Positions 2,544-41,958 of a stretch of 45,044 nt of DNA are shown here, piece by piece. Made by a program: the position numbers and the translations under genes. Source of the DNA: an uncultured Gammaproteobacteria bacterium (GTDB taxonomy: Bacteria; Patescibacteriota; Patescibacteriia; Patescibacteriales; CAZTIC01); contig CAZTIC010000002.1 of NCBI GenBank assembly GCA_964613625.1, positions 1-45,044 of the forward strand. The letters run 5' to 3'. Position 1 is the first letter of the stretch. The number at the start of each line of letters is the position of its first letter. The notes below the pieces were generated by a model, which ran no database searches, had not been told where the DNA came from, and saw only the letters and a program-made list of their open reading frames with translations.

Positions 2544-3692
2544 TTATTTATTAATTAATTTTTGATATAACTCTAAATATTCATTATACATTTTTTCGTT
2601 AGAAAAATTGTTTACAATTTTGCTTCTCGCGTTTTTGCTCATATTATTATAATCGTCTTTTGACAAATTGAGAATATAATCAACGCCATTTTTTAAATCG
2701 TTTACATCATTATGCTTAGAGACATAACCTGTTTTTTTGTGTTTTGTAATCTCTGGGATTGCATCTATTTCGTGTGTAACTACAGGGGTGCCACATGCCA
2801 TTGATTCAGCGTTGATAAGGCCAAACGAATCTTCAATTGTTGGATTTAGGAAAATATCGGCACAAGAAAGATATTTTGCAAATAGAGCTCGATTTTGTGT
2901 CGATGGCAATGATAGACAGTTTTTGTTTGTTGTGTTGATTACTGAATGACCTACAGCCGTAAAGAAAATATTGTTATTATTTTTATATTTTTCGATTATT
3001 TTATTCGAGTTTTCCCAACCTTTTATTCCAAAGCCAACGATTTTTTTATTTTGTGGTAGACCAAGCTCTTTTCTTATAAGTGTTTTATTTTGTGGCCTAA
3101 AAATATCAATATCTATACCATTATAAATACGAGTTACACTTTGATTACAAAGAATACTTTTTTTTATTTCTTTTTTTATCCATTCTGATACGGCGACAAT
3201 GTGTAGTTTTGATTTATTATAGATTTTTTTCTTTGATTTTAGAAGATTAGCTGTGTTATCCCACAGATATAGTAAAAATTTCTTTTTATTAGGATTTTTT
3301 AGGGTAGCGCTATTGTTCGAAAACCCGGTGATTGCCCATATATCATGCATTGTCTAAACTACTGGTTTTAATTGAGACATTTTTTTTAGAGTTTTTAGGT
3401 CAAAAAAATTACTATGAAGATTGTGGCAATGAACAATATCAGCTTCTTTAAATTCTTTTGTTTTCAAAAGATAATTTGTCCAAGCAAATTTAAGATCATT
3501 TGCAAAAAGCTTAACTAGCCAGTCTTGATAGCGTTTTCTAGGAATTTCGAAAACATCAATTTCGTCTGAATATTTATATCGCACGAATGTGTTTACAGTA
3601 TGTCCATCAGCTTTTAGTCGTTTCCGAAGTTCCCACGAAACCAGGGCAGCACCTCCTTTGTTGTCTATTGTTCCTATTACAAATATTTTCAT
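2544..3692 (-). pseudogene. GT4 glycosyltransferase interrupted by one in-frame TAG (plus-strand CTA at 3354-3356)
   Basis: ORFs 3354..3692 and 2544..3350 are in the same frame. The minus strand reads CCA GTA GTT TAG ACA ATG CAT = P V V * T M H. Together they give a normal GT4 (N-terminal IVHCHNLH...KPVV | TMHDIWAITG; C-terminal NPTIEDSFGLINAESMACGTPVV). Confidence 0.7.
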
Positions 3693-25023: not shown

Positions 25024-25036
25024 ATTGTTTGTATAG

Positions 25037-25094
25037 TCTGTAAAGTTCTTAAAGTTACTTTATGACTTTATAGACTTTTGACTTTCTGACTTTA
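25037..25094. repeat. GACTTTA-family motif cluster forming an imperfect palindrome (site A)
   Basis: Left half TCTGTAAAGTTCTTAAAGTT. Right half GACTTTA ta GACTTTT GACTTTC t GACTTTA (25064-25094). The last unit overlaps the fcl stop codon. Confidence 0.65.
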
Positions 25095-26037: not shown

Positions 26038-26853
26038 TTATTGTTTATTGTTTTTGATTTTTTTACTCCAAAAAGAATCTCCAATTTCGGCTAATATTGA
26101 AGAATATTGATTTAATCTTTTTTGTTTAAGTTCTCTGTTGTTTTCTTCATAAAGTTTTTCACTTTCATCGTAGTCAAAGGAGACGGGGACTGAGGATATT
26201 TTTTTATTGTCAGAGTAGGCGTTAATTACCGGCTTAATAATTGAATCCCATTTGTCGAGATCACTTTTGTAGTTAAGGAAATATTGTGCGCCTGCTTTAT
26301 TGAACATTTTAGGGCCAAACCATAAATCATATATTTTATCTAGCTTATCAGAGGCTTTTTTGTTGGCTCTTGATTCTATCCATGATTGAAATTTTGGCAT
26401 TGAGTTTTTGTTTTTTCTTTCTGGTACAACTATGTCTGCATTTCCTTTTCTTAGGATATTTATCATGTCAGATATATTATTCTCGCAAAGTAGACTCCAT
26501 TTTTCTGGTTCTGCCCATAGGTAATTTGTTGGAGTATTATTTTGGGAAATTTTAATAGCTTCGTTGAGTGCGTGCCTGCGGCTTTCTCCCATGCTTAAAT
26601 CAGTTTTTTGTACTAGTTTAATATTTTCATACTCTTCTAGTTTATTTAAAAAAGAAGAATTTGATCCGCCGTCTATTACTACTGTCTTTATTTCAAGTTT
26701 ATCGGCATTTTCAAAAAATTTTAATGCAAGTTTTTCTCTTATTTTTGAAGTATCATCCTCTTTGTAGAAAGTTGTTGTGAAGATAATCAAATCATCAAAT
26801 TTTTCTTTTTTTTCTTGTTGTTCAATGCGTTTTTGAATCTCGAAATTTTCCAT
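26038..26853 (-). CDS. Hypothetical protein, possibly GT-A-like nucleotide-sugar enzyme
   Basis: 271 aa between gmd and fcl. IIFTTTFYKEDD ... KTVVIDGGSNSSF ... WAEPEK ... ADIVVPER looks Rossmann-like/GT-A-like, but I recognise no family. Confidence 0.4.
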   Translation of the reverse strand: MENFEIQKRIEQQEKKEKFDDLIIFTTTFYKEDDTSKIREKLALKFFENADKLEIKTVVIDGGSNSSFLNKLEEYENIKLVQKTDLSMGESRRHALNEAIKISQNNTPTNYLWAEPEKWSLLCENNISDMINILRKGNADIVVPERKNKNSMPKFQSWIESRANKKASDKLDKIYDLWFGPKMFNKAGAQYFLNYKSDLDKWDSIIKPVINAYSDNKKISSVPVSFDYDESEKLYEENNRELKQKRLNQYSSILAEIGDSFWSKKIKNNKQ

Positions 26854-26919: not shown

Positions 26920-27978
26920 TTAATAGCCGTTATTTTTTAAATGCATTTCTTTTTCTGCTTCTTTCATGTCGCTTTCTATCATTTCTTTAACTAGTTCTTC
27001 AAAGGATATTTTGGTTTCCCAGCCGAGCTTTTCTTTTGCTTTTTTTGGATCACCTAGCAGGGAGTCAACTTCTGTTGGGCGGAAGTATTCTGGGTTTATT
27101 TCGATTATAGTTTCTTCTGTATCTTTGTTTATTCCTTTTTCATTAACTCCTTTTCCTTGCCATTCTATTGTGACGTCAATTTCTTTGAAGGCTACTTCAC
27201 AGAATTCTCTAACAGAGTATTGTTTTCCAGATGCTATTACAAAGTCTTGTGGCCTATCTTGTTGCATCATAAGATACATTGCCTCAACGTAGTCACGAGC
27301 ATGACCCCAGTCTCGTTTTGCATCTAGATTGCCGAGTTGGATTTTATCTTGAAGTCCAAGCTTGATTCTGCAAACTGCCCTAGTTACTTTTCTAGTAACA
27401 AAGGTTTCACCGCGACGAGGTGATTCATGATTAAAAAGAATTCCACTTACCGCAAATATATTATATGCTTCACGGTAGTTAATTGTAATCCAGTGAGAGT
27501 AAAGCTTGGCTACTCCATATGGGCTTCTAGGGTAGAATGGAGTATTTTCGTTTTGTGGTGGGGTAGAGGCACCAAACATTTCACTAGTTGAAGCTTGGTA
27601 AAAGCGTGTTTTCTTTTCGAGTCCTAGTATACGAATGGCTTCTAGAATTCGCAAGGCTCCAATAGCATCTGAGTTGGCAGTATATTCTGGAGTTTCAAAG
27701 GAAACTTTTACATGACTTTGTGCACCAAGATTGTATACCTCGTCTGGTTGAATTTTTTTTAGTAAGCCAACAATATTGGTTGAATCAGTTAAGTCTCCAT
27801 AATGTAAAATAAAGTTTCTGTTATTAATTTGCGGATCTTGATAAATGTGGTCGATACGAGCGGTATTAAAAGAAGAAGATCTTCTTTTTAATCCATGAAC
27901 TTCGTAGCCTTTTTTGAGTAATAATTCAGCCAGATATGAGCCATCTTGCCCGGTGATTCCTGTTATTAAAGCTTTCAT
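26920..27978 (-). CDS. gmd: GDP-mannose 4,6-dehydratase
   Basis: [70 protein letters not shown]. Confidence 0.92.
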
Positions 27979-27982
27979 AAAT

Positions 27983-28021
27983 TAGTCTTTAAAGTTAAAA
28001 GTTCATAAAGTCTATAAAGTT
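27983..28021. repeat. GACTTTA-family motifs in inverted orientation (site B)
   Basis: The plus strand reads TAGTCTTTAAAGTTAAAAGTTCATAAAGTCTATAAAGTT. CATAAAGTCTATAAAGT is the reverse complement of units in the 28383-28501 array. Confidence 0.6.
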
Positions 28022-28026
28022 TTGAT

Positions 28027-28371
28027 TTATAGAGTTTTTATGAAACCTGATATTAGTTTTGATATTTCAATGGATAAATTATTGAAATTTTTATAATTTT
28101 CATTATTTGTGTAATTTAGGGCTTGTGCTAAATACAGCATTGATCTTACTTCTCCGCATGAGCCTTTGGCAATAAAAAGAAAATATTTAAATTCTTTATC
28201 GCTTTTTCGCTCAAATCCTTCTGCAATATTATTCATTATTGACACAGACGCCCTTTGAATTTGATCTTTGAATCCAAAATCTTTACATCTATAAAATTCT
28301 TTATAAATATCTATTGTCATTGTTTTGGCTTTTTGCCAGGCGATAATATCTTCAAATTTTTCAATTTTCAT
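28027..28371 (-). CDS. Four-helix-bundle protein (23S rRNA intervening-sequence protein / Avd family)
   Basis: 114 aa. WQKAKTMTIDIYKEF ... QIQRASVSIMNNIAEGFERKSDKEFKYFLFIAKGSCGEVRSMLYLA is the family signature. Confidence 0.8.
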   Translation of the reverse strand: MKIEKFEDIIAWQKAKTMTIDIYKEFYRCKDFGFKDQIQRASVSIMNNIAEGFERKSDKEFKYFLFIAKGSCGEVRSMLYLAQALNYTNNENYKNFNNLSIEISKLISGFIKTL

Positions 28372-28382
28372 AAAATTAAGAT

Positions 28383-28501
28383 AACTTTAGACTTTATGGA
28401 CTTTAGACTTTAAGGACTTTATAGACTTTATAGACTTTATAGACTTTAGACTTTATAGACTTTAGACTTTATAGACTTTATAGACTTTATAGACTTTAGA
28501 C
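28383..28501 (+). repeat. Tandem heptamer array: 13 perfect GACTTTA units with 0- or 2-nt spacers
   Basis: Units start at 28390, 28399, 28406, 28415, 28424, 28433, 28442, 28449, 28458, 28465, 28474, 28483 and 28492. Spacers are tg, none, ag, ta, ta, ta, none, ta, none, ta, ta, ta. A degenerate AACTTTA precedes and a partial GAC follows. A higher-order 34-nt (9+9+9+7) block occurs twice. Confidence 0.95.
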
Positions 28502-28507
28502 TAATGC

Positions 28508-28765
28508 CTACCATTTGTTTATTTTATTAATAACCTTCTTTTTTATATTAAGATATGATTTAGTGGCTTCTTTTTCTACTTTAGGTGAAACTAATCGAAG
28601 TAGTTCTTTACCGAGAATACGATATTGACCACCTACTTTATTAGCCTTAATTAAGCCTTTTTTAAGCAGGCGCTTGATGGTGCTATTAGAAATCTTTAGA
28701 ATTTCTTGTGCTTCGTGGGTAGTATATATGGCATTTTGCTTTATTTCTTCATTTGTATTTTTCAT
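28508..28765 (-). CDS. Helix-turn-helix DNA-binding protein, excisionase/MerR-like family
   Basis: 85 aa. IYTTHEAQEILKISNSTIKRLLKKGLIKANKVGGQYRILGKELLRL. Confidence 0.7.
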   Translation of the reverse strand: MKNTNEEIKQNAIYTTHEAQEILKISNSTIKRLLKKGLIKANKVGGQYRILGKELLRLVSPKVEKEATKSYLNIKKKVINKINKW

Positions 28766-28772
28766 ATTATGA

Positions 28773-28800
28773 ATTATAACAAAGTGTCAAAAAGTGTCAA
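28773..28800 (-). promoter_or_regulatory. Consensus sigma-70-type promoter abutting the HTH start codon (leaderless layout)
   Basis: The minus strand reads TTGACA-cttt-TTGACA-cttt-gt-TATAAT-tcataat-ATG. Distal -35 at 28795-28800, 16-nt spacer, -10 at 28773-28778, 7 nt to ATG (28765). The plus strand shows AAAGTGTCAA twice in tandem (28781-28800). Confidence 0.55.
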
Positions 28801-40932: not shown

Positions 40933-40962
40933 TAAATTTACTTGCAAATTCATATCTTTATA

Positions 40963-40990
40963 GTTATGAGTTATGCGTTATGAGTTATGC
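40963..40990 (+). repeat. Four tandem heptamers GTTATGA/GTTATGC overlapping the rfbB start codon
   Basis: GTTATGA (40963) GTTATGC (40970) GTTATGA (40977) GTTATGC (40984). The ATG of the last unit (40987) is the rfbB start. Confidence 0.85.
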
Positions 40991-41958
40991 GATTATTAGT
41001 AACAGGTGGGGCTGGGTTTATCGGCTCCAATTTTATACATTATTGGCTAGAGAAATATTCAGATGATTATATTATAAATCTGGATATTTTGACTTATGCT
41101 GGTAATTTGGAGAATTTAAAAAACGTTGAAAATAATAAAAACTATAAATTTGTTAAAGGGGATATTTGTGATGTGAAACTAGTTAATGATTTAGTTAAAG
41201 ATGTAGATTTGATTGTTCATTTTGCGGCTGAATCTCATGTTGATCGATCAGTGGTAAATAGCGAAGACTTTATACGAACCAATGTTGAAGGTACTCGAGT
41301 GTTGCTAGATGCGGCCAAGAATAATGGTGGCATTAGATTTCATCATATTTCAACTGATGAGGTTTTTGGGAGTCTTGATTTAAATGATTCAAAATTTAAT
41401 GAACTTACTTCGTATGACCCAAGAAGTCCGTATAGTGCCTCCAAGGCTGGATCTGATCATTTGGTAAGAGCTTATTGTCACACTCATAATTTACCAATCA
41501 CAATTTCAAATTGCTCAAATAATTATGGCCCTTATCAATTTCCTGAAAAACTTATTCCATTATTTATTACAAATTTGATAGAAGGCGAGAAGGTTCCAGT
41601 CTATGGAGAGGGTAAAAATATCAGAGATTGGATTCATGTGGATGATCATAACAGAGGAGTTGATATGATAATTAAAAAAGGTAAAATTGGAGAAACTTAT
41701 TGTCTTGGCGGAGATAACGAATTAACAAATCTAGAATTAACAAAAAAGGTTTTGAAGATAATGAATAATAGTGAAGAGATGATAGCATATGTAGATGATC
41801 GCCCTGGACATGATTTGCGTTATGCAATTGATTTTTCCAAAGCAAAAAAAGAGTTAGGCTGGGAGCCAGAAATTAATATTGAAAATGGATTAGTGCAGAC
41901 TGTGGGATGGTACAAGGATAACGAAGAGTGGTGGAAAAAAATTAAATTTAAAAAATAG
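40987..41958 (+). CDS. rfbB: dTDP-glucose 4,6-dehydratase
   Basis: MRLLVTGGAGFIGSNF, HFAAESHVDRS, YSASKAGSDHLVRAY, NCSNNYGPYQFPEKLIP. Confidence 0.9.
   Translation: MRLLVTGGAGFIGSNFIHYWLEKYSDDYIINLDILTYAGNLENLKNVENNKNYKFVKGDICDVKLVNDLVKDVDLIVHFAAESHVDRSVVNSEDFIRTNVEGTRVLLDAAKNNGGIRFHHISTDEVFGSLDLNDSKFNELTSYDPRSPYSASKAGSDHLVRAYCHTHNLPITISNCSNNYGPYQFPEKLIPLFITNLIEGEKVPVYGEGKNIRDWIHVDDHNRGVDMIIKKGKIGETYCLGGDNELTNLELTKKVLKIMNNSEEMIAYVDDRPGHDLRYAIDFSKAKKELGWEPEINIENGLVQTVGWYKDNEEWWKKIKFKK

Follow-up and report, generated by a model that had tools for sequence, protein, structure and literature searches.

The window, that is, the whole 45,044-nucleotide stretch of DNA that was analysed, carries on its minus strand a gene for a 114-residue four-helix-bundle protein (28027..28371). 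It is preceded on the same strand by a gene for an HTH_17/excisionase-family DNA-binding protein (28508..28765) and followed by the GDP-mannose 4,6-dehydratase gene gmd (26920..27978). The small gene had been assigned to the IVS/Avd-type family from its translation, and profile searches confirm this above the curated cut-offs and over the full domain, both for PF05635, 23S_rRNA_IVP (E=7e-35, 119.9 bits against a cut-off of 33.8, residues 7-109), and for TIGR02436 (E=3e-33, 114.2 bits against a cut-off of 24). At the level of sequence the protein also matches the pentameric structures 2GSC (E=1e-10) and 2RLD, of five chains each. The family is very large, as 13,834 clusters at 50% identity match the 114-residue protein at E<=1e-3, and no second copy was found at E<1e-5 in the window or in the 6-kb loci. 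HTH_17 belongs to the host context with which the gene would be co-transcribed; it was rejected as a partner of the cassette, since it adjoins the four-helix-bundle gene only in this lineage.

On both sides the gene is flanked by arrays of short units that share an AAAGTC core. The 5' arm, upstream of the gene (28384..28505, minus strand), consists of 14 tandem sense units, which occupy 28384-28502, and an outermost ATTAGTC; the arm begins 2 nt past the HTH_17 stop codon. On the sense strand the units are TAAAGTC (five), TATAAAGTC (seven), CTTAAAGTC and CATAAAGTC, with the AAAGTC core throughout; GACTTTA occurs in 13 exact copies within 28384-28502, and TRF scores the array at 159 with a period of 9. 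The 3' arm, downstream of the gene (27981..28021, minus strand), comprises four to five reverse-complement units that read AACTTTATA GACTTTATG AACTTTT AACTTTAAA GACTAAT on the sense strand and end 2 nt before the gmd ATG. The sequence-only reading had described this downstream block as the reverse complement of the upstream units, and the sequence is as described, with CATAAAGTCTATAAAGT at 28004-28020 of the plus strand. The outermost inverted pair is ATTAGTC/GACTAAT, at 27981-27987 and 28499-28505.

Upstream of HTH_17 a sigma-70 promoter is predicted (28773..28800, minus strand) with the consensus TTGACA-16-TATAAT, matching at 12/12 positions and with an extended -10 TG, and no terminator-like site is predicted anywhere on the minus strand of the HTH_17-to-gmd interval. 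Both arms should therefore share one transcript, and the promoter would drive HTH_17, the cassette and gmd as a single unit. A 10-nt direct repeat, AAAGTGTCAA in two copies (28781-28800), overlaps the perfect promoter consensus, and the similar TTGACACTTTCTGACAC is found 5' of gmd in locus L172. Pfam scans of non-overlapping ORFs of at least 80 residues detected no recombinase, transposase or reverse transcriptase in the 45-kb window. Searches of Rfam returned nothing relevant, either at the gathering threshold over the whole window or in E-value mode over 27800-28700.

An inverted-repeat search aligned the two arms in several registers, with perfect complementarity over 15 nt, 91% over 23 nt and 86% over 37 nt. 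The exact 17-mer of the earlier proposal is imperfectly matched, its perfect match covering 15-16 nt. The complementarity score of the flanks is 50, against 17.8 in shuffled sequences (z=10). The minus-strand RNA of 27970-28510 folds so that the flanks pair, at a minimum free energy of -110.2 kcal/mol (z=-4.7 relative to shuffled sequences). In a wider transcript model of 831 nt, extended by 150 nt of coding sequence at either end, 32 pairs are expected in the ensemble between the array and the downstream block. Shuffling that block reduces the figure to 1.0 (maximum 18), and the long-range stem is strongly favoured. The MFE helix joins 28461-28425 to 27984-28020 through 33 pairs. In silico, the complementary arrays are therefore shown to pair into a helix of some 33-37 bp, with the ORF in its loop, as the complementary termini of an IVS do. 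The gmd start codon lies at the foot of this predicted stem, and the HTH_17 stop and the gmd start would come within a few nucleotides of each other.

In the whole window, AAAGTC-core units form three clusters, namely the two flanks and an ORF-less hairpin near 25.05 kb (25024..25091, minus strand) made of five direct and then two to three inverted units. This hairpin fills the entire gap from the stop of an fcl-like epimerase gene, whose TAA lies inside the first unit, to the start of an ABC-2 permease gene. It is kept in L011 and missing from the syntenic relative L175, and its predicted fold is weak (-12 kcal/mol, z=-1.8). A further array is seen at 40958-41000, where about 4.7 tandem heptamers of the form GTTATGA/GTTATGC lie over the start codon (40987) of a dTDP-glucose-4,6-dehydratase-like gene, and no inverted partner was seen in the adjacent upstream sequence; as these units resemble the 3' arm of the L173 cassette (GTTACGC/GTTATGT), the array may be one arm that was left behind. 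A 271-residue ORF (26038-26853) that separates gmd from the fcl-like epimerase gene has no Pfam or NCBIfam match; as L175 and L001 lack it at the corresponding place, it looks like a lineage-specific insertion into the glycan cluster. At 2544-3692, two adjoining minus-strand ORFs of 112 residues (Glyco_transf_4 N-terminal domain) and 268 residues (Glycos_transf_1 C-terminal domain) resemble a single split GT4-family glycosyltransferase and could represent a frameshift or a pseudogene.

Bracketing by inverted arrays is shared by most of the sampled members of the gene family. We surveyed 80 loci, 79 of them scored, that encode relatives of 44-72% identity in GTDB genomes from at least ten phyla, covering Bacteroidota, Patescibacteria, Acidobacteriota, Verrucomicrobiota, Nitrospira, Chloroflexota, Deinococcota, Planctomycetota, Spirochaetota, Bdellovibrionota and others. 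By eye, most of the 80 show tandem units of about 7 nt 5' of the ATG and their reverse complement 3' of the stop; close relatives with the same synteny (99% and 88% protein identity) have AAAGTC-core arrays on both sides. The unit varies by locus (AAAGTTC/GAACTTT, CTAAGTG/CACTTAG, GAACAGT/ACTGTTC and CGCTAGT/ACTAGCG, among others), yet the arms are complementary despite these differences, even at orthologous sites such as sufA/sufB in Flavobacteriia. Flank complementarity exceeded the 95th percentile of the controls, which were 231 genes from the same loci as the family members, in 52 of the 79 loci (Mann-Whitney p=3e-21). Under a strict definition, with at least three units upstream and at least two reverse-complement units downstream, 30/79 loci qualified as against 2/240 control genes. 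As the units vary between 7 and 9 nt, a fixed-period autocorrelation detector proved too strict and was dropped for k-mer spacing, by which repeated 5-mers are most often 7 nt apart (83), followed by 8 (36) and 9 (25). Roughly one third of the loci have weak or no arms, or arrays in the same orientation (for example L026 and L032).

The repeats, for their part, concentrate at the gene, with arrays more than 10-fold denser within 200 nt of it (117) than in the other ~460 kb (76). An unrelated control set of 552 kb, consisting of relatives of at most 71% identity from the gmd metagenome scan and reused as an unbiased sample, holds eight arrays of at least four units, and four of these eight adjoin two of the three family genes present. 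More distant or independent samples (31-52% identity, together with the divergent L173 protein) placed 8 of 14 loci above the same threshold. None of the three outcomes named in the sequence-only reading as refuting it was seen: the long-range stem is favoured, related genes mostly carry the repeats, and the repeats concentrate at the gene. The interpretation given there is partly supported. An exact-protein look-up of P0272 found no record. No rRNA signatures were found in any of the 80 genome loci; a match of an rRNA probe in L056 was rejected as spurious, Rfam giving no confirmation.

Some loci show more intricate arrangements. In L033 (1611-3560) a duplicated 5' gene fragment is followed by an inverted arm, with extra arrays flanking a GH130 gene, and in L082 (2850-3000) a pair of arms without a gene lies directly upstream of an intact copy; from their sequences, both suggest that cassettes have been inserted in tandem or have decayed. 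Several types of heptamer array pile up in some CPR intergenic regions, such as L056 from Patescibacteria (2140-2440), where three (ATGCAYR, AATTACC/G and GAGTTCA-like) stand in a row by a glycosyltransferase fragment. In L071 (1650-2530), a 250-residue ORF with no Pfam match is preceded by AGTTAGT heptamers and followed by CTAAC units that are partly complementary to them; as this ORF is one of just 2/240 bracketed control genes, other passenger genes may exist.

Syntenic loci, obtained by exact-protein look-ups of gmd relatives (80-85% identity), reveal one site in four states at the junction of HTH_17 and gmd. The AAAGTC cassette is present in the window, in L011 and in L001-L010. L173 and L174 hold a different family member, weakly bAvd-like (under the Pfam cut-off for that model), with GCGTAAC/GTTACGC heptamer arms. 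An ORF-less hairpin of 9-nt units, GAGATTTTT / AAAAATCTC, whose number varies, occupies the site in L176-L178, and in L175 the site is empty, with 35 nt and a short terminator-like hairpin. These states show directly that the module can be gained, lost and replaced, and they support the earlier suggestion of a cassette or mobile module. They also mirror rRNA insertions, for which ORF-bearing and ORF-less forms are both known (bioRxiv 10.1101/2024.02.27.582315). Repeat number varies between close relatives, as in contingency simple-sequence repeats: the AAAGTC cassettes of L001-L011 have 5 or 7 units depending on the sample, L001 and L003 encode an identical 114-residue protein (P0002) with arrays of 70 and 95 nt, and the arrays of L176 and L177 differ by one unit. 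After the gmd stop, four direct AAAGTC-core units are seen in L177 (4063-4100) and in L178, and a single AAAAGTC in L176 (4063-4091); judged from these sequences, the array 3' of gmd in L177 and L178 may have grown from a single seed unit.

Several regularities of context and sequence recur across the family. The upstream neighbour is co-directional with the cassette gene in 69 of 78 loci, the median gaps to the neighbours are 70 and 65 nt, and the upstream arm is purine-rich in 45 of 48 loci. The arms exceed mere complementarity, with a 7-nt period and a conserved AAGT core; three or more copies of AAGT are found within the 90 nt preceding the gene in 41/79 loci, compared with 2/240 controls, and the genomes concerned range from 30 to 69% GC. 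Divergence of the arm k-mers parallels that of the protein (Mantel r=0.31, p=0.001), and L012 and L017 (Bacteroidales, Rikenellaceae) have AAAGTC-type arms around proteins 71-72% identical to the Patescibacteria protein of the window, which implies, as far as sequence can tell, transfer of gene plus arms across phyla. Gene and arms have therefore apparently been inherited or transferred together. The bracket occurs in unrelated contexts such as sufA/sufB, efflux-pump operons and tRNA clusters; in L016 (2883-3470), genes for tRNA-Val and tRNA-Met, both in the same orientation, flank a cassette with AAAGTT-type arms, which places it inside a tRNA transcription unit. Some distant cassettes have a -10-like box within the loop, so their own mRNA may be without the 5' arm. 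Many homologues lie on very short contigs, and the arrays may explain why metagenome assemblies frequently break at such loci.

The closest known counterparts are the ORF-containing 23S rRNA IVSs of Coxiella burnetii (S23p) and Leptospira, which share the PF05635 ORF and the enclosing terminal inverted repeats. The Coxiella IVS has two to three variable GACAGAT heptamers before its S23p ORF and a 28-bp terminal stem, cleaved by RNase III at the first repeat (PMC4990558), so the link to rRNA IVSs drawn in the sequence-only reading is real, down to the variable tandem heptamers directly upstream of the ORF. The present locus differs in that its host transcript is a protein-coding operon, between HTH_17 and gmd, in that its 5' array is much longer (14 units) and in that its arms are asymmetric; moreover, whereas the Coxiella stem is an RNase III substrate, the stem here is known from sequence and predicted fold. 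The rRNA location of 23S IVSs (helix 25 or 45) finds no counterpart, as no Rfam family was detected at threshold in the window. IVP ORFs have also been described in insertions of CPR 16S and 23S rRNA (bioRxiv 10.1101/2024.02.27.582315). The direction implied by an IVS logic 'transplanted' into an mRNA operon is nevertheless probably backwards: with no rRNA signatures among the 80 loci, sites outside rRNA look like the norm and the rRNA copies like a special case.

Other systems share single features. The accessory protein Avd (bAvd) of diversity-generating retroelements (DGRs) has a homologous pentameric four-helix-bundle fold and binds an RNA stem-loop as a pentamer (bioRxiv 10.1101/2023.10.23.563531); however, the adjacent reverse transcriptase gene of a DGR is missing among the ORFs of at least 80 residues in the 45-kb window. 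The 5'-UTR of Haemophilus influenzae hmw1A carries an (ATCTTTC)n array, and here too a tandem heptamer array of variable copy number serves as one arm of a long hairpin, which is transcribed and then cleaved by RNase III (PMC12721329); that hairpin, in contrast, lies in a 5'-UTR and encloses no gene, and its other arm is a G-rich tract rather than an inverted array. REPIN/RAYT elements and integron attC cassettes, by analogy only, combine a single gene or cassette with folding inverted repeats, gene-less repeat copies elsewhere and cassette exchange at a fixed site, but the present locus has neither a Y1 transposase nor an integrase, its repeats are tandem 7-9-mers instead of one imperfect palindrome, and only one ORF-less copy occurs in 45 kb. 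Viewed as a possible transposon or MITE, the locus shows inverted termini but no target-site duplication at the boundaries GGTAGGC/ATTAGTC ... GACTAAT/TTATGAA; no transposase was found in the window, a single contig, and an enzyme encoded elsewhere may act in trans.

On balance, and by a modest preference, we regard the locus as an IVS-type cassette, in which a PF05635 ORF within inverted AAAGTC-core arrays of 7/9-nt units sits in the HTH_17/gmd polycistronic transcript for glycan synthesis. In read-through transcripts the helix would be a processing site for a double-strand-specific activity, most likely RNase III, by analogy with the ORF-bearing Coxiella 23S rRNA IVS and the Haemophilus hmw heptamer hairpin. 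Once cleaved, the cassette RNA would be excised or insulated, in which case the insertion would cost the host operon little, and the tandem units would let the stem withstand slippage in copy number. More speculatively, the repeat helix may be a target of the pentameric protein, whose homologue Avd binds an RNA stem-loop; the Avd pentamer contacts its stem-loop with all five protomers, which makes the encoded protein a candidate binder. Such binding would explain why an AAGT core is conserved and why the period is 7 nt, two features that suggest sequence-specific recognition. The core also speaks against RNA processing by itself, as an RNase III substrate has no need of it. Other points that count against the cassette reading are the -10-like box within the loop of some distant cassettes, the roughly one third of loci whose arms are weak, missing or in the same orientation, and the lack of a mobility enzyme in the 45-kb window.

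A rather less probable reading, though one with a substantial claim on the data, places the function of the arms in DNA, as terminal inverted repeats or as single strands that fold into recombination sites (attC-like or cruciform) for insertion, excision or exchange of the cassette; their complementarity would then be kept by template switching, gene conversion between inverted repeats and slippage instead of selection on an RNA helix. A helix under purely RNA-level selection is expected to tolerate G:U. Among the inter-arm mismatches there is no excess of G:U-compatible ones on the sense strand (58 vs 66; 11 vs 13 for isolated ones), and transversions predominate. Wobble asymmetry, considered as proof of RNA-level constraint, thus gave no signal; because the mismatches show no G:U tolerance, such constraint on the arms cannot be claimed from them, and a DNA-level role stays in contention. 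The presence, absence and replacement of the module at one site, the passage of arms with the gene across phyla (71-72% identical proteins in Bacteroidales, Rikenellaceae and Patescibacteria) and the many homologues on very short contigs, as expected of repeat-flanked multicopy elements, agree with it as well. Set against this, the 45-kb window has no recombinase, transposase or reverse transcriptase, no target-site duplication is visible at the cassette boundaries, and a symmetric mechanism needs neither the strong polarity of the arms relative to the gene nor an upstream neighbour that runs in the same direction. In Coxiella, besides, the homologous cassette in rRNA is demonstrably processed as RNA (PMC4990558).

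The remaining alternatives give the repeats a different purpose, or none. It is quite improbable in our judgement that they are mainly protein-binding iterons, AAGT-core units 7 nt apart in RNA or DNA that the pentamer or another factor would recognise, serving autoregulation or ribonucleoprotein assembly with arm complementarity as a secondary matter. The AAGT enrichment across genomes of widely differing GC content, the period of 7, the co-variation of unit and protein and the pentameric PDB relatives fit such sites, as does Avd, whose five protomers all contact the RNA stem-loop with flipped-out bases in inter-protomer crevices; but many loci lack AAGT (GGCAGAA, GCGTAAC, GTACATC, CGCTAGT) despite fairly similar proteins, and ORF-less repeat hairpins occur far from any IVP gene. 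We would be surprised if the arrays were contingency repeats, in which slippage changes the number of units and tunes the cassette gene or the gmd glycan operon by phase variation. Unit number does differ between L001 and L003, around the same P0002 protein, and between L176 and L177, Coxiella strains carry 2 vs 3 heptamers (PMC4990558), heptamer number at hmw sets expression via the RNase III hairpin (PMC12721329), and the locus heads a surface-glycan cluster; the recurrence of the bracket at sufA/sufB, in efflux-pump operons and in tRNA clusters nonetheless argues against this reading, and the matching inverted array downstream of the gene is left unexplained. Chance in the low-complexity sequence of an AT-rich genome, where TRF lists many weak repeats, is practically refuted by flank complementarity ten standard deviations above shuffles, by the confinement of the units to just three clusters in 45 kb and by the recurrence of the feature in dozens of unrelated genomes.

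The IVS-type cassette reading can be carried further, to a joint proposal that we advance tentatively and think unlikely to hold in full. PF05635 genes and inverted heptamer arrays would together make up a widespread and self-contained class of mobile hairpin cassettes residing in the loops of transcribed hairpins anywhere, that is, in rRNA helices, tRNA spacers and the intergenic terminators of operons. They would avoid harm to the host by having the stem cut out of the RNA. An Avd-like pentamer would sit on the repeat helix with about one 7-nt unit per protomer, and the resulting RNP would mediate spread or maintenance, possibly via a reverse transcriptase acting in trans. If this were true, both the classical rRNA IVSs and the heptamer hairpins that lack an ORF could be seen as special cases of the element or as its relics.

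In the literature searched, we found no description of an inverted heptamer-array bracket around non-rRNA members, which is not proof of novelty, nor of a site polymorphism of the HTH_17/gmd type. The locus in the window appears to be an ordinary member of its class, and it is the bracket pattern at the level of the class that appears under-described. To our knowledge, no function of PF05635 is known except in DGRs. Members of the family have been taken for functional partners of the host operon, for example in cas operons (PMC3936711), and the bracket, the placement and the site polymorphism warn against such guilt-by-association annotation of PF05635 genes. The conserved and covarying bracket, the tight, co-oriented placement and the four-state site combine into a unifying, testable picture, and suggest that the 30-year-old puzzle of ORF-bearing rRNA IVSs is one face of a general cassette system.
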